The translations under genes were made by a program, and so were the position numbers. From Candidatus Omnitrophota bacterium (GTDB lineage: Bacteria > Omnitrophota > Gorgyraeia > 2-01-FULL-45-10), in the NCBI GenBank assembly GCA_041650805.1, contig JBAZKM010000006.1, positions 17,837 through 81,836 of the forward strand: a DNA stretch of 64,000 nucleotides, written 5' to 3'. The notes beneath the pieces were generated by a model. It searched no databases, was not told the DNA's origin, and saw nothing but the letters and a program-made list of their open reading frames with translations. Below are positions 24,076 through 61,550 of the stretch, piece after piece. Numbering within the stretch: the first letter of the stretch is position 1; every line of letters starts with the position of its first letter.

Positions 24076-24487
24076 GGGGGTGACAGGCATCGACCTAGGT
24101 AAATACGGTAAGGGTGGCATGTAGAGGTTGCTAGGAGGCCTCTTTAAACACCTGGCAAAAATCAAATGCTGACAACGTAAAAGTGCCAGCTACGGTAAAC
24201 GAGCTTCTGGCTACCATGCAAGTGGTACCGGGGCCCGTTCTACCACAAGCGTTACCTTTATAAGGTAACCCGTTAACCGGCCTCTTCCTGCGGGGCCGGA
24301 TTAGCGTCGCTAGCAGGATGGTCTCTCCGGTTTATCCTTCGGCCGGTGAGATGAGATCGTCAAAGGATACCTTCGCGAAATTCCTCCTATTGAAGTTCGG
24401 GAAGGGAACTCAAAGATTAGGATAAACATGTAGATGCCTTTATTGTGGTATCTGGGGACGCGAGTTCGAATCTCGCCACCTCCACCA
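24076..24487 (+). ncRNA. ssrA: tmRNA (SsrA), one-piece
   Basis: Starts GGGGGUGACAGG...CGAC. Ends with a tRNA-like T-arm/acceptor: GGACGCGAGUUCGAAUCUCGCCACCUCCACCA. Lies immediately downstream of smpB. Confidence 0.85.
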
Positions 24488-31453: not shown

Positions 31454-31761
31454 TAAGCCTGCCATTTGTTTACGTGTAGGCAGGCTATCCCCGCGAGTAT
31501 ATCGGAAATTTCGGAGAAATTTCCGATATGATTACGAGCGGGGATGATCTCACCGGCTGATGACGGTGATGAAAGTCACCTTCATCTTCTGGTCAGACGG
31601 ATTTCGAAGAAATCCGGCAGCCGCTTAGAAGATGGGGAAGCAGAGCCGGTAGGAAGTAGTCTTGTTCTTCCGAAAGCACTCTGCGAATTTCGTATATCGC
31701 AGGGCGATATCCGAAATTCAATGTTTCGCTTTCGGAAGGAAATTTGCAGAGCAAATTTCAC
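31454..31761 (+). other. 308-nt highly structured intergenic region between tRNA-Pro and tRNA-Arg (unassigned ncRNA or recombination/regulatory element)
   Basis: Several long hairpins. One has a perfect 13-bp palindrome (ATATCGGAAATTT-cggag-AAATTTCCGATAT) nested inside an ATCCCCGC/GCGGGGAT stem. Others include AGCCTGCC/GGCAGGCT and CGGATTTC/GAAATCCG. Confidence 0.4.
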
Positions 31762-31838
31762 GTCCCTGTAGCTCAGCTGGATAGAGCATCTGCCTTCTAA
31801 GCAGAGGGTCGCCTGTTCGAATCAGGCCAGGGACGCCA
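31762..31838 (+). tRNA. tRNA-Arg (anticodon TCT), CCA encoded
   Basis: GTCCCTG/CAGGGAC acceptor. Anticodon loop CUUCUAA. T-loop GTTCGAATC. Confidence 0.85.
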
Positions 31839-31986
31839 TCCGCCTTCGCAATCAACGCGGAAAGCGGCAAGGTGCTTCGGCGGATTTTATCCGCCATAGC
31901 CATCATGCTATAATATGCTGAAGGCGACGGCGGATGTGCCCGCCGAAGCATTCTGTTGCGCTCCGTTGAATGCGAAGGCGGGCCAC
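31839..31986 (+). repeat. Copy A of a ~148-nt MITE-like structured repeat with imperfect terminal inverted repeats, abutting the tRNA-Arg CCA end
   Basis: About 95% identical to 58920-59067. Termini TCCGCCTTCGCAATCAACG ... CGTTGAATGCGAAGGCGG are inverted. Internal long stem GCTTCGGCGG...CCGCCGAAGC. Contains TATAAT. Confidence 0.8.
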
Positions 31987-31996
31987 AAATAGGTGT

Positions 31997-32242
31997 ATGC
32001 ACTACGTTTACATCCTAAAAAGCCTTAAAGTAAGAGATAAAATATACGTTGGTATGACCAATAACCTGAACCGTCGTCTCAAAGAGCACGATGAAGCAGC
32101 AAGTGATAATTACACATATCGCCATCGTCCCTGGAAACTCGAAACATATATTTCATTTCAAAGTAATTTGGCTGCTAAGGAATTCGAAGCTTATTTAAAA
32201 ACAGGCTCAGGTAGAGCATTTATTAGACGACATCTTGTTTAA
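31997..32242 (+). CDS. Small GIY-YIG nuclease-domain protein (UPF0213/YhbQ-like)
   Basis: Motifs YVYILKS...YVGMTNNLNRRLKEH (GIY...YIG...R...H/E). Starts 10 nt after repeat copy A. Confidence 0.7.
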   Translation: MHYVYILKSLKVRDKIYVGMTNNLNRRLKEHDEAASDNYTYRHRPWKLETYISFQSNLAAKEFEAYLKTGSGRAFIRRHLV

Positions 32243-32410
32243 GTGTTTGAGGTACCTGTTAGTCTTCTGTTTTTATTCTTTCGCAAAAATCTTGCTAATA
32301 CTAGGCAATGACTATATAATAACGCTATCGAAATTGAAAAGACGACTATTAGAGAGTTTCGCTCATAATTCGAACCGATATACTTGTCTATAACAAAAAG
32401 CGAGGTGGGT

Positions 32411-33418
32411 ATGAGATTACGAAAATTGAAGTATGCTTTGGTTGCTTTAGCGGTGCTCTTCATATGCGGAGACGTCTGCGCGTTCACGTTCACGAAAGTC
32501 GACAAGGAGGAGCGCAAAAAGCAGGAGATAGACGATCTCCAGAAGAGGTTCGAATGGTGGCCGACCGACGCCCAGCCGCAACCGGTGAAGGACGAGAAGC
32601 GCGGCGGATACTGGTGGATGCCGCGCACCCCGGGCACGACGAGACCGTGGGGTAACCGCGGTTATATTTACGTATATAAGATCATATACGATTACAAAGA
32701 GGAAGAGCTACCGCCGGCTAAGGCCTCGGAGCCGCGCCCGTCGCTCCTCATCAAGAAGATCATAAAGAACGTCAAGGTCTACTTCGATTTCGATAAGGCG
32801 GAACTTCGCGACGATGCCGTATCGGTGCTGGAAGGGGCCGTCGCCTCTTTGCGCCGGAACCCGGAGACGAGCATCCTGATCACCGGTAACTGCGATATCC
32901 GCGGATCCGAACAGTATAACGAGAAACTCGGCCGGCGCCGCGGCGACAGCGTAAAGAAGTTCATGCTCGACAGCGGTGTCCCGGAGAAGAGGGTGATGAT
33001 CGTAAGCCGCGGTAAGCTCGATGCCATAGCGCCGGTGACGGACCTCGCCGGCATGGCAAAAGACAGGAATGCCCAGTTCATGATAGCAGAGGTGGAAGAG
33101 GTCATGATCCCTGCGCCGAGCACGCAGGGTGAGGCCGAAGGGGCCGTCCCGTCCCAGGAGGCGGAACAGATCCCCGAAGGTGCGACGCAGATCGAGGAAG
33201 GGAAGTATCTCATAGAAAAGGAAGAGATAGTCGAGTCGGAGGTCAAGGTCTCCACTAAGACGTACGTCACGAAGAAGGGCGATACGCTCTGGAAGATCGC
33301 AGAGAGGGAGCTCGGCGAGGGCAGAAGGTGGAATACAATATACGAGCTCAATAAGGATAAGATCAAGAACCCGAATAAGCTGAGCGCAGGGAAGAGGCTC
33401 GTTATTCCGGTCGAATAG
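32411..33418 (+). CDS. OmpA-family peptidoglycan-binding protein with C-terminal LysM domain, secreted
   Basis: Signal peptide. OmpA_C-like motif (YFDFDKAELRDDAVSVLE...NCDIRGSEQYNEKLGRRRGDSV). LysM (YVTKKGDTLWKIAE...GKRLVIP). GAGGTGGG RBS. Confidence 0.75.
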   Translation: MRLRKLKYALVALAVLFICGDVCAFTFTKVDKEERKKQEIDDLQKRFEWWPTDAQPQPVKDEKRGGYWWMPRTPGTTRPWGNRGYIYVYKIIYDYKEEELPPAKASEPRPSLLIKKIIKNVKVYFDFDKAELRDDAVSVLEGAVASLRRNPETSILITGNCDIRGSEQYNEKLGRRRGDSVKKFMLDSGVPEKRVMIVSRGKLDAIAPVTDLAGMAKDRNAQFMIAEVEEVMIPAPSTQGEAEGAVPSQEAEQIPEGATQIEEGKYLIEKEEIVESEVKVSTKTYVTKKGDTLWKIAERELGEGRRWNTIYELNKDKIKNPNKLSAGKRLVIPVE

Positions 33419-33424
33419 TTTTGC

Positions 33425-33497
33425 GGTGGGCGTAGCTCAGTCCGCCTTCGCAATCAACGCGTAATAGATTAGGTGCTTCGGCGGATTTCGCACGAAT
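33425..33497 (+). repeat. 16-nt duplicate of the tRNA-His 5' end (33425-33440) followed by a ~57-nt 5' fragment of the MITE-like repeat (partial copy B)
   Basis: ggtgggcgtagctcag is identical to tRNA-His positions 1-16. It is followed by tccgccttcgcaatcaacgcg...ggtgcttcggcggattt, matching the first part of copies A and C. Confidence 0.7.
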
Positions 33498-33505
33498 AGT
33501 TTTAT

Positions 33506-33584
33506 GGTGGGCGTAGCTCAGCTTGGATAGAGCACCTGGCTGTGGCCCAGGGTGTCGCCGGTTCAAATCCGGTCGCCTACCCCA
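33506..33584 (+). tRNA. tRNA-His (anticodon GTG) with G-1 and discriminator C, CCA encoded
   Basis: G-1 followed by GTGGGCG paired with CGCCTAC (one G-U). Anticodon loop CUGUGGC. T-loop GGTTCAAATCC. Confidence 0.8.
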
Positions 33585-33887: not shown

Positions 33888-35489
33888 TTAGGCGAGCCCT
33901 GCGGTTAATGTCTGCCACATCTTTTTCTGCTTATTCCAGGATATTTCTCTGGTGATCTCATTCATTTTGTATTCGGGGATCAGTTGGATGATGTTATTAT
34001 CTGAAAAGAGAATCTCTTCCTGTATGCTAGGCGCGAGCATCAGCATATTTAGAAGAAGATACATTTTAGTGTGCGTTATATTGAGCCAATCAGCCACCTG
34101 TTTTAAATCTTTAGCCTTGCCGTCTTCAAGTAATCCTTGTATTTGATACGCTAATATTAAAAATTGGCGCAGCTTAGGCTCCTTTAGGATCGCCACAGCT
34201 TTAGGTGTCTCACGTACAAGGCTTGTTGCCAAATCTACATTGAATTCGTAAATTTTAGTAGAGCTTTGCAGTGTTATAAAGACCTTTTTACTCTCGGCTT
34301 CATAAAGTACAACTTTTACTAAGGCGAGAATCGTTTCACGTTGCCTCTCAAATGGCAGGTTCTCCCACGTTCCTGTAGCTATGTTTCTGTTGTCGGAGAT
34401 CTGGCGCAGACACAGCATGATCTGATTCTCGAATCTTAATGCGTTAACGGTCTTTGAAGGGCAATTCTCATAGCCTCGCTTTTGCGCGTTTAAACAAACG
34501 TAGTAAAAGTATTTCCATTTATGATTTTTGGTAGAGTATGCGTATATCATAGAGCTATCGCATGGCTTGCAGCGGACTATTTGGCTTAATAGGCCGATGT
34601 TTTTATGCGGTTTTACTTTTTTCTCGCGTCTATTCTCGTCCAAAATAGTTTGGACCTTATTAAAGACTTCTTCGCTGATTATCGCTTCATGCTGTCCCTG
34701 GTACACCTGCTTGCCTTTGTAGTTAATCTTGCCGATATAGAGCATATTACGCAGCATTAGCTGCATGCTCGTAGCCTTAAATGGAACACCGCCTGACATC
34801 TTACCCTTCCTTAGGTATTGTTTGGTTCGATAACCCCTTTTGTTGAGGATCATGGCTACGGAAAGGAGGGAGCGTTCCTTGGTATAAAGGTCAAACATTT
34901 CTCGGATAATTCGAGCCTCAGCCTCATTGATTACGATCTTATGATTTTCCTTATCGAGGTTATAGCCTAAGGCTGGCCTACCGCCCATCCACTGGCCTTT
35001 CTTGCGCGCAGCGCCCATTTTGTCGCGTGTGCGCTCGGATATGATCTCACGCTCGAACTGTGCGAAAGAGAGCAGAATATTGAGCGTAAGTCGTCCCATT
35101 GACGTATTTGTGTTAAAATGCTGCGTTACGGATACGAAGGCTACGTTATTTTGATCAAAAAATTCCAGCAGCTTACTAAAATCGAGCAATGAGCGCGATA
35201 GTCTGTCTACTTTGTAGACCACCACGCATCCTATTTTCCCAGACTTGATGTCTATTATCAGTTTTTGCAGCGAAGGACGTTCAGTAGTTGCGCCTGAAAA
35301 CCCTGCATCGTCATAGTGATCAGCTAACGTGATCAATCCTTCGGATTTTTGGCTTAGTATATAGCTTTCTGCTGCCTCGCGCTGCGCGTCAAGCGAGGTG
35401 AATTCCTGCTCCATGCCGTCATTCGTAGAAACACGCGTATAGATGGCGCAGGGGATAGGCTTCTTATCTTGTGTTAATTTGTCATCCAT
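33888..35489 (-). CDS. Large serine recombinase (resolvase/invertase N-terminal domain, recombinase domain, zinc-ribbon)
   Basis: Catalytic N-terminus (CAIYTRVSTNDG ... YKVDRLSRSL). 533 aa. C-terminal Cys cluster (CKPCDS...C). Confidence 0.85.
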   Translation of the reverse strand: MDDKLTQDKKPIPCAIYTRVSTNDGMEQEFTSLDAQREAAESYILSQKSEGLITLADHYDDAGFSGATTERPSLQKLIIDIKSGKIGCVVVYKVDRLSRSLLDFSKLLEFFDQNNVAFVSVTQHFNTNTSMGRLTLNILLSFAQFEREIISERTRDKMGAARKKGQWMGGRPALGYNLDKENHKIVINEAEARIIREMFDLYTKERSLLSVAMILNKRGYRTKQYLRKGKMSGGVPFKATSMQLMLRNMLYIGKINYKGKQVYQGQHEAIISEEVFNKVQTILDENRREKKVKPHKNIGLLSQIVRCKPCDSSMIYAYSTKNHKWKYFYYVCLNAQKRGYENCPSKTVNALRFENQIMLCLRQISDNRNIATGTWENLPFERQRETILALVKVVLYEAESKKVFITLQSSTKIYEFNVDLATSLVRETPKAVAILKEPKLRQFLILAYQIQGLLEDGKAKDLKQVADWLNITHTKMYLLLNMLMLAPSIQEEILFSDNNIIQLIPEYKMNEITREISWNKQKKMWQTLTAGLA

Positions 35490-55346: not shown

Positions 55347-56114
55347 ATGCCTATATTAAGAAAGATGTGCGCTGCTATGGCTTTAGCGAGTCTGTTGATT
55401 TGTGCAGAGGTTTATGCAGCGTCTGTTAGTGTTAAAGACGGCAACATTTTTTATATTAATAATGGAAAGAGCATGCAAATCACATCAAGTAATCATGATA
55501 ATAACCCTATGCTACATCCAGATGGCAGGTGGATATACTTCATTCGTGGCTCTGAAGGTAAATGGGTTGGGGAAAAGTTCTATCCACGCGAAGGGGCAGT
55601 AGTTAAAGATGGGTTACTTCATGATGAGCTCTGGCGCGTTAAAACTGATGGTACCGGCGCAATTATGTTGTTTCGCTCAGAGCACGCAGCTATTGACGGT
55701 CCGGATCCAGACTACTCTGTTGCGCATATAAATAGTATGCAGCTTTCACCAGATGGCGATAAGGTATATTTCGAAGCCTCTGAGTGGGTGACATCAGATG
55801 CTTTATATGTAATGAACGCAGACGGTTCAAATGCAAAGATGTTAGGCCCTGGTAATGATACAAAGATAATTTTATCAGCTAGAACATTCGATGATCGAGA
55901 GAGTGACTATAAGGGGTACATTATCACAAATCAACACAGATATTTCCTATACGGTGGTTCTTATGATTGGTATTATTTGTTCACGCCTGACCTAAAAAAA
56001 GAAATAGCGCCTTTGGGAGATGATTTTGATTATTTTACAGAAATGGGTGATATAATATATACAGATCATAGTGAAAAGACCATTCAAAGAAGCGAAAAGA
56101 TAAAGGGCTTATGA
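55347..56114 (+). CDS. Secreted TolB-like beta-propeller (PD40-repeat) protein
   Basis: Signal peptide. Repeated DG(R/D)xxYF / SPDGDKVYF / MNADGSNAKML motifs typical of PD40 repeats. Confidence 0.5.
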   Translation: MPILRKMCAAMALASLLICAEVYAASVSVKDGNIFYINNGKSMQITSSNHDNNPMLHPDGRWIYFIRGSEGKWVGEKFYPREGAVVKDGLLHDELWRVKTDGTGAIMLFRSEHAAIDGPDPDYSVAHINSMQLSPDGDKVYFEASEWVTSDALYVMNADGSNAKMLGPGNDTKIILSARTFDDRESDYKGYIITNQHRYFLYGGSYDWYYLFTPDLKKEIAPLGDDFDYFTEMGDIIYTDHSEKTIQRSEKIKGL

Positions 56115-56584
56115 AAGAATATTGTCACTATCGGATGATTCTTTTAAATAGAAAAATATCATTCCTAGAATACAAAACCAAGGGCGAGGCATTTGCTAAA
56201 ACCGAAACATTTCTACGGCCAGTTACATCCAAAAGCTTACCCAAGATTTATATTATAAAAAATCGCGGTGAAATCATATATATAGGGATTGCGTCACAAA
56301 GCATTGCAAACCGGCTGCGTTATGGGTTTAGTGCTAAGGGGAGAGGTGGATACCACGGATATCGATGGAGGGATTTAGTCGATAAAATTGATCTTCTGGT
56401 GTGGTGTTTTCCAGGCCAATCTATGCATTATGTAGAATCGATTGAAGCAGAAATAGTTTTTGCATTGCGTCGCGATACTGGTAAATGGCCAGCATTTCAG
56501 ACAGAGATCCATTTTCATAATGTGACAGATGAAGAAAAGAAGCTGGCTTCTTCAATTTATAGTGAAGCGTCCAAAACTGCGTAG
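56111..56584 (+). CDS. Hypothetical protein with a GIY-YIG-like motif
   Basis: KIYIIKNRGEIIYIGIASQSIANRLRYGF resembles the GIY...YIG...R core. Weak. Confidence 0.35.
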   Translation: MKEYCHYRMILLNRKISFLEYKTKGEAFAKTETFLRPVTSKSLPKIYIIKNRGEIIYIGIASQSIANRLRYGFSAKGRGGYHGYRWRDLVDKIDLLVWCFPGQSMHYVESIEAEIVFALRRDTGKWPAFQTEIHFHNVTDEEKKLASSIYSEASKTA

Positions 56585-56592
56585 AAAATCTT

Positions 56593-57609
56593 ATGCTAAC
56601 CGACAATATATTCAAGTTGCTAAAGAAAGTAAGCAAAGACGAAGATCAGCTTTCCGCGGCTTTTGGTTTTTTGCTTAAAGAGGATAGTGAGATTCTGCGT
56701 CATTTCTTAAGCAAATTAGGGATTCAGCTTAATAAACAGGAACTAAAAAGAGTTGATATCGAAACGCTAGTTCCATATGTGTTTAAATCAAAAACTAGTA
56801 TTATTGATCTCCAGTTAGAGATACCGGGCAAATATCTTATTTTTCTTGAGTCGAAAATAGTTCCAACCAAGACCGAGAGAATCATAGCTCAAATTAAGCC
56901 TTATAACGATATTCTCAGGCATAAAGAAGATGGGTACGAAGGCGGTACGCACTTAGTATATGTGGCGAAGGATTCGATAGATAAGCGGCAAATAGATAGC
57001 ATACAAAGAAGCTTGTGTAGAAGCGCTAATGAATTTGAATTCTTTTCATGGGAAAATCTGTTAGCGCTAGTGGTGAGTTGTAAAAGAAAAAATAGGCGAC
57101 TAATAGAATTATTTAGTGATTACATAGGAGACGCTATGCATAGTAAAAAAGTTATAAATGAGCAAAAAATCAAAAACATATCAGACGTTCTCGTCGTATT
57201 TACAAATCCCGCATTCTGGCAAATGACTCTCCAAAGAAATATAGTAGTGCAAAGCCGAAGTGGTCCTGATGCTCGCTACATAGCATTCCTTAGAACGCAT
57301 TTACCTCGGGAAAGAAGCGGGATTACACATATAGCCGAAGTTGATTATACAGAATTAAGGCCAAGAAATGAGATGTTTGAAAAGGTAGACAAGGAAACAA
57401 GGTGTCAACTCGAGCAGCATATGAAAGCTCGAGATATCGATCTTGAAGGCCTACACAAAGCTTATATCCTAAAGCCAGGCTCATTAAAAAAGCTGCATCA
57501 TAAAATTGATCATTACGGATCGGGGCCAATGGTTAAGTTTAGCGCAAAGATGGGTGACTTACTATGCGCGAAAACCACCAAAGATATCAAAAAAGGTAAA
57601 AAAGTATAA
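56593..57609 (+). CDS. Hypothetical protein with a PD-(D/E)xK-like nuclease motif
   Basis: SIIDLQLEIPGKYLIFLESKIV fits the D...E-x-K pattern. Confidence 0.35.
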   Translation: MLTDNIFKLLKKVSKDEDQLSAAFGFLLKEDSEILRHFLSKLGIQLNKQELKRVDIETLVPYVFKSKTSIIDLQLEIPGKYLIFLESKIVPTKTERIIAQIKPYNDILRHKEDGYEGGTHLVYVAKDSIDKRQIDSIQRSLCRSANEFEFFSWENLLALVVSCKRKNRRLIELFSDYIGDAMHSKKVINEQKIKNISDVLVVFTNPAFWQMTLQRNIVVQSRSGPDARYIAFLRTHLPRERSGITHIAEVDYTELRPRNEMFEKVDKETRCQLEQHMKARDIDLEGLHKAYILKPGSLKKLHHKIDHYGSGPMVKFSAKMGDLLCAKTTKDIKKGKKV

Positions 57610-57615
57610 ATTCCT

Positions 57616-58695
57616 ATGTCGATGAATAAAATAGCATGTTTCATAGCTATGGCTTTCGACCATCCTGATACAGACAAAATCTACGATAGTATTTTGTTAC
57701 CCATGTTAAAAAGCAAGAATATTGCTGCTCGAAGGATTGATCGCATACAGCATAATGATGATATTACTACTCGAATTATAGAAGAAATTAATTCTGCAGA
57801 CTTTTGTATTGCAGACTTAACATTCGCGCGACCAAGCGTGTATTATGAGGCTGGGTATGCAGAGAGAGGCATACCCGTTATCTATATTATGCGAAAAGAT
57901 CATTTTAAGCATAAGCCGGAGGATGAGCACGGTAATTTTAGAGCGCATTTTGACGTACAGGTAAAGAATATTATACCGTGGGTTAGTTACAATGACGCTG
58001 TCTTTAAAAAGAAGCTCAGGAAAAGAATAGAATACATAATGAGGCCCATTGAGAAGATGCGGAAAGAAATAGCAGTTCTAGATAACGAAAAACTTCATTT
58101 TGCTTCTTTATCGTTATTCGAAAAAGTTCAATATTGTAAGACAGAATTAGAAAGTTATTTTAGGAAATATAAATTTCATAAGTTTCCTAGAGAAAGGGAA
58201 GGGGATAGGCATAGTACTAGAGAAGAGAAAAGAGATGCGCAGTATTTAGTCAAAGGGCAAACTGGTTTTTATTCCGATAATCTGGTTTTTTGGAAACCAT
58301 CCAAAAGTATTCTTCGCAATATTGGGTCTCACTATACCTACTGGTTTGGTGTAGGGAGTATTTATAAAACAATCCTAGAGAAATGCAGGAAGAATATCAC
58401 TGGTCTCATATATTTTAGTGTAATAGTTTCTCCTAACAAGGTTTTAGCTAGTAGTATCGCAGAAGCCCTGAGTGGATATAGAAATGCAGCCTATAAAGAT
58501 CTAAAGTACTTTTTTGTTGATGTTCGTAAAGAGCCGATCGAAATATCGAAAAATAAGACAGTCAAACTGAAAATAACCTCTCTATTCATTGTAATAGATA
58601 ATGTTCAGTCCAAGCGAGATTTATCGCTAAAATATAACCAAATATTTGATTTTGTTGTTGATCAATCCGATAGGCTATTATCGAGAAGGTATTAG
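57616..58695 (+). CDS. Nucleoside 2-deoxyribosyltransferase-like / TIR-like (SLOG-type) domain protein with unknown C-terminal domain
   Basis: N-terminal CFIAMAFDHP...ADFCIADLTFARPSVYYEAGYAERGIPVIYI matches the PF05014-like pattern (DLS...NV.fElGyA...KPvi). Confidence 0.4.
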   Translation: MSMNKIACFIAMAFDHPDTDKIYDSILLPMLKSKNIAARRIDRIQHNDDITTRIIEEINSADFCIADLTFARPSVYYEAGYAERGIPVIYIMRKDHFKHKPEDEHGNFRAHFDVQVKNIIPWVSYNDAVFKKKLRKRIEYIMRPIEKMRKEIAVLDNEKLHFASLSLFEKVQYCKTELESYFRKYKFHKFPREREGDRHSTREEKRDAQYLVKGQTGFYSDNLVFWKPSKSILRNIGSHYTYWFGVGSIYKTILEKCRKNITGLIYFSVIVSPNKVLASSIAEALSGYRNAAYKDLKYFFVDVRKEPIEISKNKTVKLKITSLFIVIDNVQSKRDLSLKYNQIFDFVVDQSDRLLSRRY

Positions 58696-58919
58696 TATGT
58701 TGAAATGTCCACCTATTTGAAGAGGACATTAGCTATCAATTTGTATCTAAAAGAGTTGCATCATTCCTGGACAAAAAAGACAGGACAAATCGGACATTTT
58801 TCATAGGGACCATACTATGAGAATAGCGGAATTTCATTGATAACAAGGGTATTTCGGCTATAATAGATACTTGAGGATTTACATAGGTCTGTCCCCAGGT
58901 GAGAAGGGGAGCGACCCCA

Positions 58920-59067
58920 TCCGCCTTCGCATTCAAGGCGTAAAGTGACAGAATGCTTCGGCGGATTTTATCCGCCATAGCCATCATGCTATAATATGCT
59001 GAAGGCGACGGCGGATGAGCCCGCCGAAGCATTCTGTTGCGCTCCGTTGAATGCGAAGGCGGGCCAC
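58920..59067 (+). repeat. Copy C of the ~148-nt MITE-like structured repeat
   Basis: Near-identical to 31839-31986 with about 6 substitutions. Same terminal inverted repeats. Confidence 0.8.
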
Positions 59068-59070
59068 TAA

Positions 59071-59141
59071 ACTTCGTCGGATTGACTAATAATCTCGATC
59101 GACGCATCGAAGAACACGACAAAACCTCGAGCGCACATTAA
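59071..59141 (+). pseudogene. 5'-truncated remnant of a GIY-YIG gene (homologue of 31997-32242)
   Basis: Translates to FVGLTNNLDRRIEEHDKTSSAH*, matching YVGMTNNLNRRLKEHDEAAS of the intact copy. The first ~25 codons and the start codon are absent. Confidence 0.6.
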
Positions 59142-60383: not shown

Positions 60384-60485
60384 TTTAGGATCGTTTTAGT
60401 AGAATGGCAAAATGTCCGCCTATATATCCAAAATTTTTTGCTGCTTGAAATAAAAATGATTTCGTGATTTAATAGGAACGTTGTT

Positions 60486-60690
60486 ATGTGGGGAGGTCGT
60501 AAAGCGGCCTGAGAGTTCCGCACGCGCTCTTCAAGCGCAGAGCGGATTACCCGATGAACCTGATTCTGCTATGCCCGTCACCGGTTAGGCGGTGGTAGGG
60601 CTTCGCAGGAATCATTACTACGAAGCTCAAAGCCGGATGGCTTTGAGCGAAGTAGAATGATCTGGATAATACCAGCGGAGGGAGAGGGGG
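60486..60690 (+). ncRNA. TPP (THI-box) riboswitch with a ~95-nt insertion, upstream of thi4
   Basis: Contains GGGGAGG...CUGAGA (J3-2), ACCCGAUGAACCUGAU and AUCUGGAUAAUACCAGCGGAGGGA. A long internal hairpin interrupts the P4/P5 region. Confidence 0.6.
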
Positions 60691-60779: not shown

Positions 60780-61550
60780 ATGTTTAAGAAGATAACGGAG
60801 TCTCAGGTAAGCAGGGCTATCGTAGGTGAGTTTACCAAGTGGTTTAATGAGTATATCGTTTCTGACGTTATGGTGGTAGGTGGCGGCCCCAGCGGCCTTA
60901 TCGCAGCGCGCGATTTAGCTAATGCAGGCCTCAAAACGCTTATCATAGAAAGTAACAACTATATAGGAGGCGGCTTCTGGATCGGTGGTTATTTTATGAA
61001 TACCCTGACCTTCAGGGCTCCGTCAGACACTATCCTTGATGAATTAAAGATAACTTATAAAGAGGTAGAGGACGGCTTATTCGTTGCGGATGGTCCTACC
61101 GCTTGCTCAAAGCTTATCTCCGCGACTTGCGATTCAGGCGCTAAAATACTGAACCTGACCAAGTTTGACGATGTTGTCCATCGCAATAACAGGGTTGAGG
61201 GTGCGGTCATTAACTGGTCGCCGGTCTCAGCCCTGCCAAGGCAGATCACCTGCGTAGATCCTATCGCCTTGGAGTCAAAGGTTGTGATTGATGCCACAGG
61301 CCACGATGCCTGGGTAGCCAAGAGCCTTGAGAAGAGAGGGCTCTTAAAGATCCAGACATACGGGCCTATGGATGTGTGTACATCGGAAGATCTCGTGGTC
61401 GAAAAGACAGGCGAAGTATATCCGGGCTTATATGTCATGGGTATGGCCGCGGCCACCGTTTATGGCATACCCCGCATGGGTCCCACGTTTGGAGGGATGC
61501 TCTTCTCCGGCAGGAAGGCGGCAGGAGAGATAATAAAAAGATTGACCTAA
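60780..61550 (+). CDS. thi4: Thiazole synthase, Thi4 family
   Basis: FAD-binding VVVGGGPSGL. Thi4 motifs (catalytic Cys region MDVCTSEDLVVEKTGEVYPGLYVMGMAA). Downstream of the TPP riboswitch. Confidence 0.8.
   Translation: MFKKITESQVSRAIVGEFTKWFNEYIVSDVMVVGGGPSGLIAARDLANAGLKTLIIESNNYIGGGFWIGGYFMNTLTFRAPSDTILDELKITYKEVEDGLFVADGPTACSKLISATCDSGAKILNLTKFDDVVHRNNRVEGAVINWSPVSALPRQITCVDPIALESKVVIDATGHDAWVAKSLEKRGLLKIQTYGPMDVCTSEDLVVEKTGEVYPGLYVMGMAAATVYGIPRMGPTFGGMLFSGRKAAGEIIKRLT

Follow-up and report, generated by a model that had tools for sequence, protein, structure and literature searches.

A palindromic repeat and a minimal GIY-YIG nuclease gene at tRNA 3' ends: a candidate selfish cassette in an Omnitrophota genome and its relatives in about 15 phyla

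What accounts for a 148-nt palindromic repeat that stands exactly between the CCA end of a tRNA-Arg gene and a gene for a GIY-YIG nuclease of only 81 residues? The question is raised by a 64,000-nt stretch from a Candidatus Omnitrophota bacterium (GenBank assembly GCA_041650805.1, contig JBAZKM010000006.1, positions 17,837 to 81,836), here called the window, in which an earlier note had seen either a co-mobile unit of repeat and nuclease or a structured leader of the nuclease gene. In our view the repeat and the gene (approximately 31839–32250) are best explained as one copy of a selfish cassette residing at the 3' ends of tRNA and transfer-messenger RNA (tmRNA) genes. It would consist of palindromic modules and an Slx1-type nuclease located at CCA ends, with gene-less units as non-autonomous derivatives, a reading which we judge to be about evenly poised between right and wrong. 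The cassette has a recurrent anatomy, a linkage to tRNA and tmRNA ends that extends through its family, modules that covary, and footprints of insertion, duplication and decay.

The two full copies in the window, units A and C (Table 1), are near-identical, as had been stated: BLASTN aligns them at 92.5% identity over 161 nt (31829–31989 with 58910–59070), a match that includes about 10 nt of the upstream flank, and the 22-mer GCTTCGGCGGATTTTATCCGCC occurs twice in the window versus 0 expected (100 shuffles). Unit A begins on the nucleotide that follows the tRNA-Arg, and the intact nuclease gene starts 10 nt past its end, both in agreement with the earlier description, and the terminal inverted repeats (TCCGCCTTCGCAATCAACG and CGTTGAATGCGAAGGCGG) and the inner stem can likewise be seen, the modules being oppositely oriented. 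As one long hairpin unit A folds with −92.7 kcal/mol (z = −10.7). With −87.4 kcal/mol on the opposite strand the unit folds almost equally well on both, which identifies it as a DNA palindrome. Folded as three local hairpins it reaches −19.8, −23.4 and −25.0 kcal/mol (total −68) versus −92.8 as one. In units of the TCCGCC type, which is the type present in the window, the terminal CA of the tRNA can pair with a TG that follows the arm. The loop of the central hairpin contains TGCTATAAT (31906–31914), resembling an extended −10 promoter element, and its ATA/GAC loop variant is found in other loci too; module 3 is the family-wide leader motif that lies immediately 5' of the gene.

Table 1. Features of the window that make up copies A, B and C of the repeat and their flanks.
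Feature	Position	Strand	Basis
tRNA-Arg(TCT), ends in CCA; anchor or target of cassette A	31762..31838	+	ARAGORN; Rfam tRNA 69.2 bits
Unit A, 148-nt composite palindrome; three module-like hairpins or, alternatively, one long hairpin	31839..31986	+	Sequence, folding
Unit A, module 1: inverted module of ~30 nt with 22-nt P2 extension, abuts the terminal CA of the tRNA	31837..31886	-	Covariance model R1, 23.7 bits, E = 0.0034
Unit A, central module-like hairpin: P1 TCCGCC/GGCGGA, loops ATA/GAC	31889..31936	+	Local fold, −23.4 kcal/mol
Unit A, module 3: direct copy, TGCCCGCC-GAA-GC...GC-GAA-GGCGGGCC	31937..31984	+	R1, 35.8 bits, E = 1.3e-6; fits family consensus
Intact gene for 81-aa minimal GIY-YIG nuclease, Slx1/UPF0213 lineage (predicted)	31997..32242	+	Pfam PF01541, E = 4e-15
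Left 29-nt direct repeat at copy B: 12 nt of upstream sequence and first 15 nt of tRNA-His	33412..33440	+	27/29 identical to 33492–33520
Copy B, 51-nt insert with one inverted module (singlet)	33441..33491	-	BLAST, 85.7% identity to first 49 nt of unit A
Right 29-nt direct repeat at copy B, runs into intact tRNA-His (33507–33584)	33492..33520	+	ARAGORN, sequence comparison
Fragment GCGACCCCA, ends in CCA, directly 5' of unit C	58910..58919	+	Sequence; resembles a tRNA 3' end (tRNA-His ends ...CTACCCCA)
Unit C, second full 148-nt copy; modules 58918–58967 (-) and 59018–59065 (+)	58920..59067	+	R1, 26.2 and 31.1 bits
GIY-YIG gene remnant, residues ~17–36, reads FVGLTNNLDRRIEEHDKTSS	59073..59132	+	tblastn, 60% identity to intact protein, E = 9e-6

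The third copy, B, is matched by the covariance model at 33439–33487 on the minus strand (22.1 bits). Upstream of unit C neither ARAGORN nor Rfam finds a tRNA directly 5' of the repeat, and there is the CCA-ending fragment only; as this flank ends in ACCCCA like tRNA-His, unit C may once have stood directly behind that gene. A homologue of the nuclease gene does follow unit C, as had been noticed, and the truncation that had been described for its 5' end affects both ends: a deletion of about 57 nt has removed the start codon, nothing remains of the 3' part, and a stop codon lies at 59139–59141. Copy C is a decayed copy. Its unit has remained 92.5% identical to unit A while the adjoining gene sequences agree at 31 of 45 nt (69%), which indicates that the unit was copied or homogenised independently of the gene.

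There are only three copies in the 64 kb and all of them adjoin tRNA or GIY-YIG sequence, a pattern that would suit a local duplication of a 5' untranslated region in this genome, devoid of wider meaning. This is extremely improbable. Close relatives whose proteins are 70–75% identical have a unit of this type behind a different tRNA-Arg, and across about 15 phyla the architecture is met again in 80 loci, where its module is conserved and covaries. A purely local duplicate, the scenario which the earlier note had itself raised against its proposal, is excluded by this recurrence.

The 80 homologous loci, collected from contigs at one genome per species, have 41–56% protein identity. In 58 of them ARAGORN predicts a gene for a tRNA (15 isotypes) or a tmRNA (10 loci) that is read in the same direction as the nuclease gene and ends less than 400 nt 5' of it. 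Ten of the 22 remaining loci have less than 300 nt of upstream sequence, and among loci with 400 nt or more of it the count is 58 of 70, with a median spacer of 120 nt between tRNA and gene. Three more (L005, L022 and L045) show T-arm...ACCA 3' ends of the tRNA/tmRNA type that ARAGORN missed, and L039 resembles copy C in having a short CCA-ending fragment only. The location at tRNA 3' ends suggested earlier is thus seen well outside the window. The palindrome begins at the CCA or a few nucleotides from it; 45 of the 58 spacers open with (N0-6)CTTCGC or a close variant, and the consensus at +1 is GCCTTCGC. Isolates with the cassette exist as well, among them Thalassospira sp. HJ, Maricaulis salignorans and Pseudaquidulcibacter saccharophilus.

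As to the choice of the tRNA, nearest neighbours share its type in 22 of 46 cases. When the neighbour is forced to come from another phylum the number falls to 8 of 56, against about 10% expected, and target-specific lineages that extend across phyla are thus not supported. The tmRNA gene of the window (24076–24487) has no palindromic unit behind it; this tmRNA is itself peculiar, as its predicted tag peptide is unusually long (30 residues, ADNVKVPATVNELLATMQVVPGPVLPQALPL). At one locus (L041:3800–4001) two GIY-YIG genes of the family stand in tandem, the upstream one ending in ...YLKTGSGRSFAKRHL about 110–170 nt before the start of the next.

The module that recurs in these loci is an imperfect palindrome of about 30 nt with a P1 of about 7 bp, a 3x3 mismatch of GAA or GTA opposite GAA, and a P2 of variable length. 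Directly 5' of the gene it takes the form yyCCGCC-G(A/T)A-GC-loop-GC-GAA-GGCGGrc in about 70 of the 80 loci, and the coupling of the repeat to a small GIY-YIG gene, first proposed from the window, is in this way a general one. The sequence GCGAAGG is present in 52 of 73 upstream regions versus 11 of 464 control windows, while the 10-mer GCGAAGGCGG (at most one mismatch) reaches 3.1 per kb in the 400 nt 5' of the gene versus 0.10 per kb elsewhere, a 30-fold difference. A covariance model (R1, from alignment A1) that we built from 17 instances has 157 matches in the window and 86 loci, with 69 direct and 43 inverted copies 5' of genes and 13 copies at 0–450 nt 3' of genes. The direct copy lies just 5' of the start codon and the inverted copy incorporates the CCA of the tRNA: in 18 inverted copies the first position lies exactly 4 nt ahead of the end of the tRNA and P1 is CCAGCC/GGCTGG, which places the CCA within the palindrome.

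The suggested search with a covariance model also revealed covariation. In an alignment that was fitted to the model itself, 90.9% of the cells are paired, 129 cells show double changes versus 30.9 in shuffles, and all 9 pairs have compensatory changes; when the partner columns are slid, pairing falls to 31–37%. Rfam 15, at gathering and E-value thresholds, has no family for the unit of the window, for 18 cassette loci or for 20 loci of dispersed modules, and the matches seen were chance similarities to models of miRNA precursors only. A full-text search of the literature, which included the module sequence, found no description of the cassette or of this arrangement, which is apparently undescribed.

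The protein scores 56.3 bits against Pfam PF01541 (cut-off 22.6). Six residues are invariant in 41 homologues (Y5, Y17, G19, R27, H31 and E64, all but the glycine being catalytic), and the domain is closed by a C-terminal motif, FExYLKTGSGRAF, that is specific to the subfamily. The nearest solved structures by sequence (phmmer against PDB) are Slx1 (4xlg, E = 3.6e-5) and the UPF0213 protein BH0048 (1zg2, 2e-4). An AlphaFold2 model (mean predicted local distance difference test score, pLDDT, 89.6) has its best Foldseek matches in At-HIGLE and Slx1 (7wme, 7cq2, 6seh; E ~1e-4, template modelling score 0.65–0.75), and UvrC and I-TevI are reached at E >= 1 only. Sequence and predicted fold thus agree in assigning the protein to the Slx1/UPF0213 lineage of GIY-YIG proteins, as a stand-alone minimal domain: the 81 residues are catalytic domain throughout and include no added DNA-binding domain, RING or partner domain. 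Characterised members of the Slx1-type lineage cut branched and hairpin DNA. The family is large, with 3,291 clusters at 50% identity (E <= 0.001).

A longer, 90-residue open reading frame (ORF) from 31970, which would turn part of the unit into coding sequence, was rejected because all homologues start at MHYVYIL. The same frame, 31970–32242, starts inside the palindrome and illustrates a wider annotation problem: many representatives carry N-terminal extensions of 25–55 residues from gene callers, the match beginning at residue 25–55, and since the open frame crosses the unit these are probably a systematic error in the choice of the start codon. A version of 62 residues is encoded by L081, a contig that Logan has for this organism and whose first bases already belong to the unit. 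At the other end of the cassette, similarity to the cassettes of relatives stops about 8 nt past the stop codon (~32250).

Several kinds of footprint point to mobility. Seven loci (L003, L033, L035, L052, L068, L071 and L073) have an exact copy of 13–21 nt of the tRNA 3' end on the 3' side of the gene, 1–183 nt past it and ending precisely at the tRNA terminus; with mismatches tolerated, the repeat becomes longer in L071 and L033. In L035 the terminator of the tRNA stands behind the second repeat, so that removing the cassette and one repeat indirectly reconstructs the empty site. An inverted copy of the left end is found less than 300 nt past the stop codon in 9 of the 58 loci versus 3 of 100 controls; it matches at 14 of 14 positions in L053 and L059 and at 13 of 14 in L068, which has the direct repeats too and so shows inverted ends together with a duplication. 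One Acidobacteriota genome has two loci (L020 and L078), behind tRNA-Ser(CGA) and tRNA-Ser(GGA), whose sequences agree at 94% over 610 nt; the similarity begins where the tRNA ends and extends 145 nt beyond the stop codon. Loci from Patescibacteria and Caedibacter have 78% nucleotide identity over tRNA-Ser, spacer and gene, a similarity for which contamination of a metagenome-assembled genome (MAG) is a possible cause.

Variation also occurs within a population. A tRNA-Arg(CCG) locus coding for a 70%-identical relative of the window protein was recovered from six samples (L083–L088) with identical genes and a spacer of 113 to 312 nt (e.g. L086:2302–2414 and L084:5689–6000), which holds anything from one unit to more than 3 subunits (about 51 or 100 nt each) in tandem. 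Within one population, the palindromic unit is therefore a hot spot of tandem amplification. The contigs of the closest relatives (L081 and L082) start inside the unit and many homologues are found on contigs of 0.5–2 kb, as expected of breaks in a repeated sequence. The co-mobility of unit and gene that had been proposed is supported by the duplicated Acidobacteriota block and the seven loci with tRNA-end repeats; in the window itself, the unit spread or was homogenised separately from the gene.

Two Patescibacteria loci (L033:3666–3870 and L009:320–490) have an additional stretch, where an intact tRNA-Gly and its terminator are followed by about 170 nt of structured sequence, which ends with a second tRNA-Gly 3' end (..CCGCTCCA), and then by the cassette; in L033 there is a third copy of the tRNA-Gly end past the gene. 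Disruption of a tRNA gene could account for this stretch, as could an element that resembles a tRNA.

The same arrangement could be that of a cis-acting RNA leader, the cassette then being an ordinary or domesticated host gene that is expressed from tRNA promoters. The gene would be co-transcribed with the tRNA; after 3' processing the hairpins would shield the mRNA at its 5' end, a Shine-Dalgarno-like GAAGGCGG or GAAGGAGG would be sequestered in the last module, alternative pairing with the inverted copy would tune translation, and the nuclease would work in repair or in RNA/tRNA metabolism. It would be in keeping with this that the gene lies close behind the tRNA and on its strand in 58 loci, that no match to a sigma-70-like promoter or to an intrinsic terminator was found between tRNA-Arg and the GIY-YIG gene, and that the 3' arm of the module ends 5–12 nt before the start codon in about one third of the loci, where GAAGGCGG or GAAGGAGG could serve as Shine-Dalgarno sequence. 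In many others, however, the module lies 20–185 nt from the start, where a function in ribosome binding is impossible. In its 3x3 GUA/GAA loop the module is similar to RNA modules of the loop E or sarcin-ricin type, and a hairpin of the same kind occurs inside a likely thiamine pyrophosphate (TPP) riboswitch of the window (60606–60668). A fusion to TrmH reported for prokaryotic Slx1 homologues (PMC1564403) would also fit a role in RNA metabolism.

Strong covariation has been counted in favour of an RNA as well, but it fits a function in DNA or in RNA alike. What tells against a leader is the nature of the changes and the distribution of the copies. Direct (sense) copies contain 12 G-T and 14 A-C combinations and thus lack the wobble bias specific to RNA. 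Gene-less copies after stop codons occur in both orientations (10 sense versus 16 antisense by a rough count). Nor would a housekeeping leader be expected to show direct repeats of tRNA ends, almost identical cassettes behind different tRNAs, amplification in tandem or decay, and there is no Rfam match. On balance we regard an RNA leader as rather unlikely and lean towards a DNA-level element that is also transcribed.

The riboswitch just mentioned deserves a description of its own. It is predicted at 60479–60679, 5' of a Thi4-like gene that starts at 60781, by a two-piece match of 26.8 bits versus an Rfam threshold of 54.3. About 98 nt are seemingly inserted between AACCUGAU and CUGGAUAAUACCAGCG, and the insert comprises the long hairpin, which is of module design (CUAC-GAA-GC...GC-GAA-GUAG).

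Modules are by no means confined to the cassette. When metagenome contigs were scanned for the consensus GCCGWAGCYTTRGCGAAGGCGG, at least 120 loci were found. Among the matches listed, 91 of 100 are not near a tRNA and 9 of 100 have one just upstream, which looks like a large excess over a roughly estimated chance level. A tRNA or GIY-YIG neighbour for every copy, which had been suggested for a check, is thus seen in the window and not among the dispersed modules listed. Conservation of the dispersed modules is limited to about 32 nt, and they are found after stop codons, in 5' regions and occasionally inside ORFs; their loci contain 28 further copies in 593 kb. Gene-less doublets also occur behind tRNAs, in L033 behind tRNA-Val and in L117 together with a copy of the tRNA-Phe end. 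The module alone thus also behaves like a repeat of the repetitive extragenic palindromic (REP) type. One copy of the consensus module (L137:7504–7533, reverse strand) lies in frame in a sulfatase-like coding region, where it reads ...DPHEPWNPPRHYRDMYTD-PPSPRLRRAGE-DDVADVIW. This recalls the palindromic elements of Rickettsia, which are known to insert into genes.

The abundance of such copies invites the explanation that module and gene are independent, with REP-like palindromes being spread by some other host or transposase activity and accumulating at harmless sites such as the 3' flanks of tRNA genes, and the GIY-YIG gene being a separate selfish gene that lands on the module. Some insertion sequences do insert specifically into REPs. 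The dispersed copies agree with this, as 96 of the 97 modules that could be evaluated among the matches listed have no GIY-YIG gene downstream and the 28 extra copies accompany them; so do the enclosure of the gene by two directly repeated 3' parts of the unit in L059 and by inverted ends in L068, and the higher identity of units than of genes in the window. Yet from phylum to phylum the module keeps the same place and the same direction with respect to the start codon, and 48 of the 66 copies detected by regular expression in GIY-YIG loci (about three quarters) are directly 5' of the gene. Unit and gene were duplicated as one block in L020 and L078, and no other transposase was found associated with modules in the loci examined. 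Independence of the two elements is, in our estimate, quite unlikely.

For a selfish cassette the following course of events may be envisaged. The first, inverted module is joined to the tRNA in such a way that the final CA or CCA of the tRNA pairs with TG or TGG further downstream. The nuclease, for which recognition or cutting of the modules is suggested by the genomic linkage and by the lineage of the enzyme, would cut either the palindrome in its extruded state or the point at which it joins the tRNA end. In the course of recombination-dependent repair the whole cassette, or just the palindromic unit, could then be copied to a place behind the ends of other tRNAs, and such copying would leave tRNA-end duplications and tandem amplifications. 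Gene-less units, in the window copies B and C, would be non-autonomous derivatives that are spread or homogenised in trans or by gene conversion, in the way of MITEs (miniature inverted-repeat transposable elements) and REPINs (REP doublets forming hairpins). The gene would probably be expressed by transcripts that read through from the promoter of the tRNA, or else from a weak promoter of its own within the cassette.

A number of observations weigh against a selfish cassette of this kind. As the protein consists of the catalytic domain alone and no DNA-binding domain is evident, the choice of the target is left unexplained. No homologue was found on plasmids or phages at E <= 1e-8. A phylogenomic survey of 2006 (PMC1564403) described the prokaryotic Slx1-like proteins as minimal putative repair enzymes with mostly vertical inheritance, and mentions no link to tRNA genes. 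Recognisable tRNA-end direct repeats are restricted to 7 of 58 loci; cassette A has neither a direct repeat nor an inverted repeat past its gene, and dispersed singlets show no target-site duplication above the control level. No empty site was found in a close relative; on the contigs compared, those with homologues (65–72% identity) of the downstream OmpA-LysM gene, synteny is lost. Finally, with a GIY-YIG gene downstream of 1 in 97 evaluable modules among the matches listed, the module thrives without the gene nearby, which makes its link to the enzyme a circumstantial one.

The cassette lacks a defining feature of each of its nearest analogues, which are REPINs (REP doublets forming hairpins) with their REP-associated tyrosine transposases (RAYTs), GIY-YIG homing genes, miniature inverted-repeat transposable elements (MITEs) and tRNA-targeting islands. 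It shares with the REP/REPIN-RAYT system the short imperfect palindromes, the inverted doublets that fold into a long hairpin, many gene-less intergenic copies, a small nuclease gene flanked by palindromes, and a conserved G(T/A)AG tetranucleotide inside the module. However, the gene codes for a GIY-YIG nuclease of the Slx1 type, whereas RAYTs are HUH/Y1 transposases related to IS200/IS605; copies that accompany the gene are attached to tRNA or tmRNA genes at the CCA, and the gene can be multi-copy. REPs are lineage-specific, in contrast to a module sequence that is common to several phyla. The likeness also has a limit in the 64-kb window, where the copies are tRNA- or gene-linked only.

SegB of phage T4 is encoded by a free-standing GIY-YIG homing endonuclease gene in the tRNA gene cluster of the phage (PMC13096335), and this resembles the cassette in the small GIY-YIG gene among tRNA genes, the selfish-looking distribution and the segmental or tandem amplification. 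Seg proteins and I-TevI, however, belong to the UvrC-like lineage and have a DNA-binding domain, which a homing endonuclease gene should add and for which a protein consisting entirely of the catalytic domain leaves no room (Foldseek E > 1 to I-TevI). The cassette is also chromosomal in bacteria and was not found in phages, and it differs further in its conserved palindromic modules and in the duplicated tRNA ends that some loci show. The best matches in sequence and fold, with conserved catalytic Tyr, Tyr, Arg, His and Glu, are Slx1, At-HIGLE and the YhbQ-like UPF0213 proteins, from which the cassette protein differs in its own C-terminal motif and in having no RING or partner domain; a systematic linkage to tRNA ends and palindromes is unreported for the Slx1/UPF0213 family (PMC1564403).

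The comparison with MITEs that had been drawn earlier is apt in part. The unit, non-coding and about 150 nt long, is bounded by terminal inverted repeats and forms a long hairpin; it is present in two full copies and one partial copy, one of them beside a related gene-carrying element, and copy B is flanked by a direct repeat. A target duplication of fixed length is missing, as there is none at A or C and B has 29 nt, and across the loci the flanking repeats are pieces of tRNA genes of 13–29 nt rather than short and fixed. A partner with the same ends may be seen in the 9 of 58 cassettes that carry the gene between inverted ends, but in most loci the gene is outside the inverted repeats, and the protein is no known transposase.

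Islands with an integrase likewise occupy the 3' ends of tRNA and tmRNA genes, and a subset of the cassettes (7 of 58) has the flanking direct repeats of the tRNA 3' end. The cassette differs in its size of about 0.4–0.6 kb, in having no integrase or recombinase, and in a junction exactly at the CCA, where that of the islands is inside the T- or anticodon loop. An island of about 25 kb (33585–58900) is present in the window, and the large serine recombinase with which it begins (33888–35489, minus strand) belongs to this separate island and not to the cassette. Together with tRNA-His it is bracketed by the first arms of copies B (33441–33464) and C (58920–58943), which are direct repeats, 92% identical over 24 nt and 25,479 nt apart. 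Three ORFs at its far end (56111–58695) have no NCBIfam match: one of 157 residues has a borderline GIY-YIG match (22.2 bits, cut-off 22.6), one is a PD-(D/E)XK_4 nuclease (23.3 bits) and one of 359 residues has a weak match to nucleoside 2-deoxyribosyltransferase. They could be a defence-type gene set.

A further palindrome lies close to unit A, in the 308-nt spacer between tRNA-Pro and tRNA-Arg (31454–31761). It is near-perfect (tatcggaaatttcggagaaatttccgata, ~31500–31528), is accompanied by related 'atatccgaaatt' pieces, and is unrelated to the 148-nt unit.

These comparisons lead us to raise, tentatively and as a possibility that we would sooner doubt than assert, that the cassette represents a new class of bacterial mobile DNA, in which a minimal GIY-YIG nuclease of the Slx1 type, and not an HUH or DDE transposase, maintains and spreads palindromic modules in the manner of RAYTs and REPINs. 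The CCA ends would then be the docking sites of gene-carrying masters, and the module sequence shared across about 15 phyla would reflect its recognition by the enzyme.

Small genes annotated as 'GIY-YIG nuclease family protein' are present in thousands of genomes, and their role has so far been assumed to be in repair. A subfamily that is tied to the 3' ends of tRNA and tmRNA genes and to a palindromic module provides them with a testable function, that of a structure-specific nuclease with a candidate substrate. For annotation, the cassette accounts for the breaks in MAG assemblies and for the false N-terminal extensions with which these genes are annotated there. If the nuclease moves the modules, it would constitute a second, mechanistically different route to REP-like repeats and a new tRNA-targeting element, and possibly a compact hairpin-specific nuclease of practical use.

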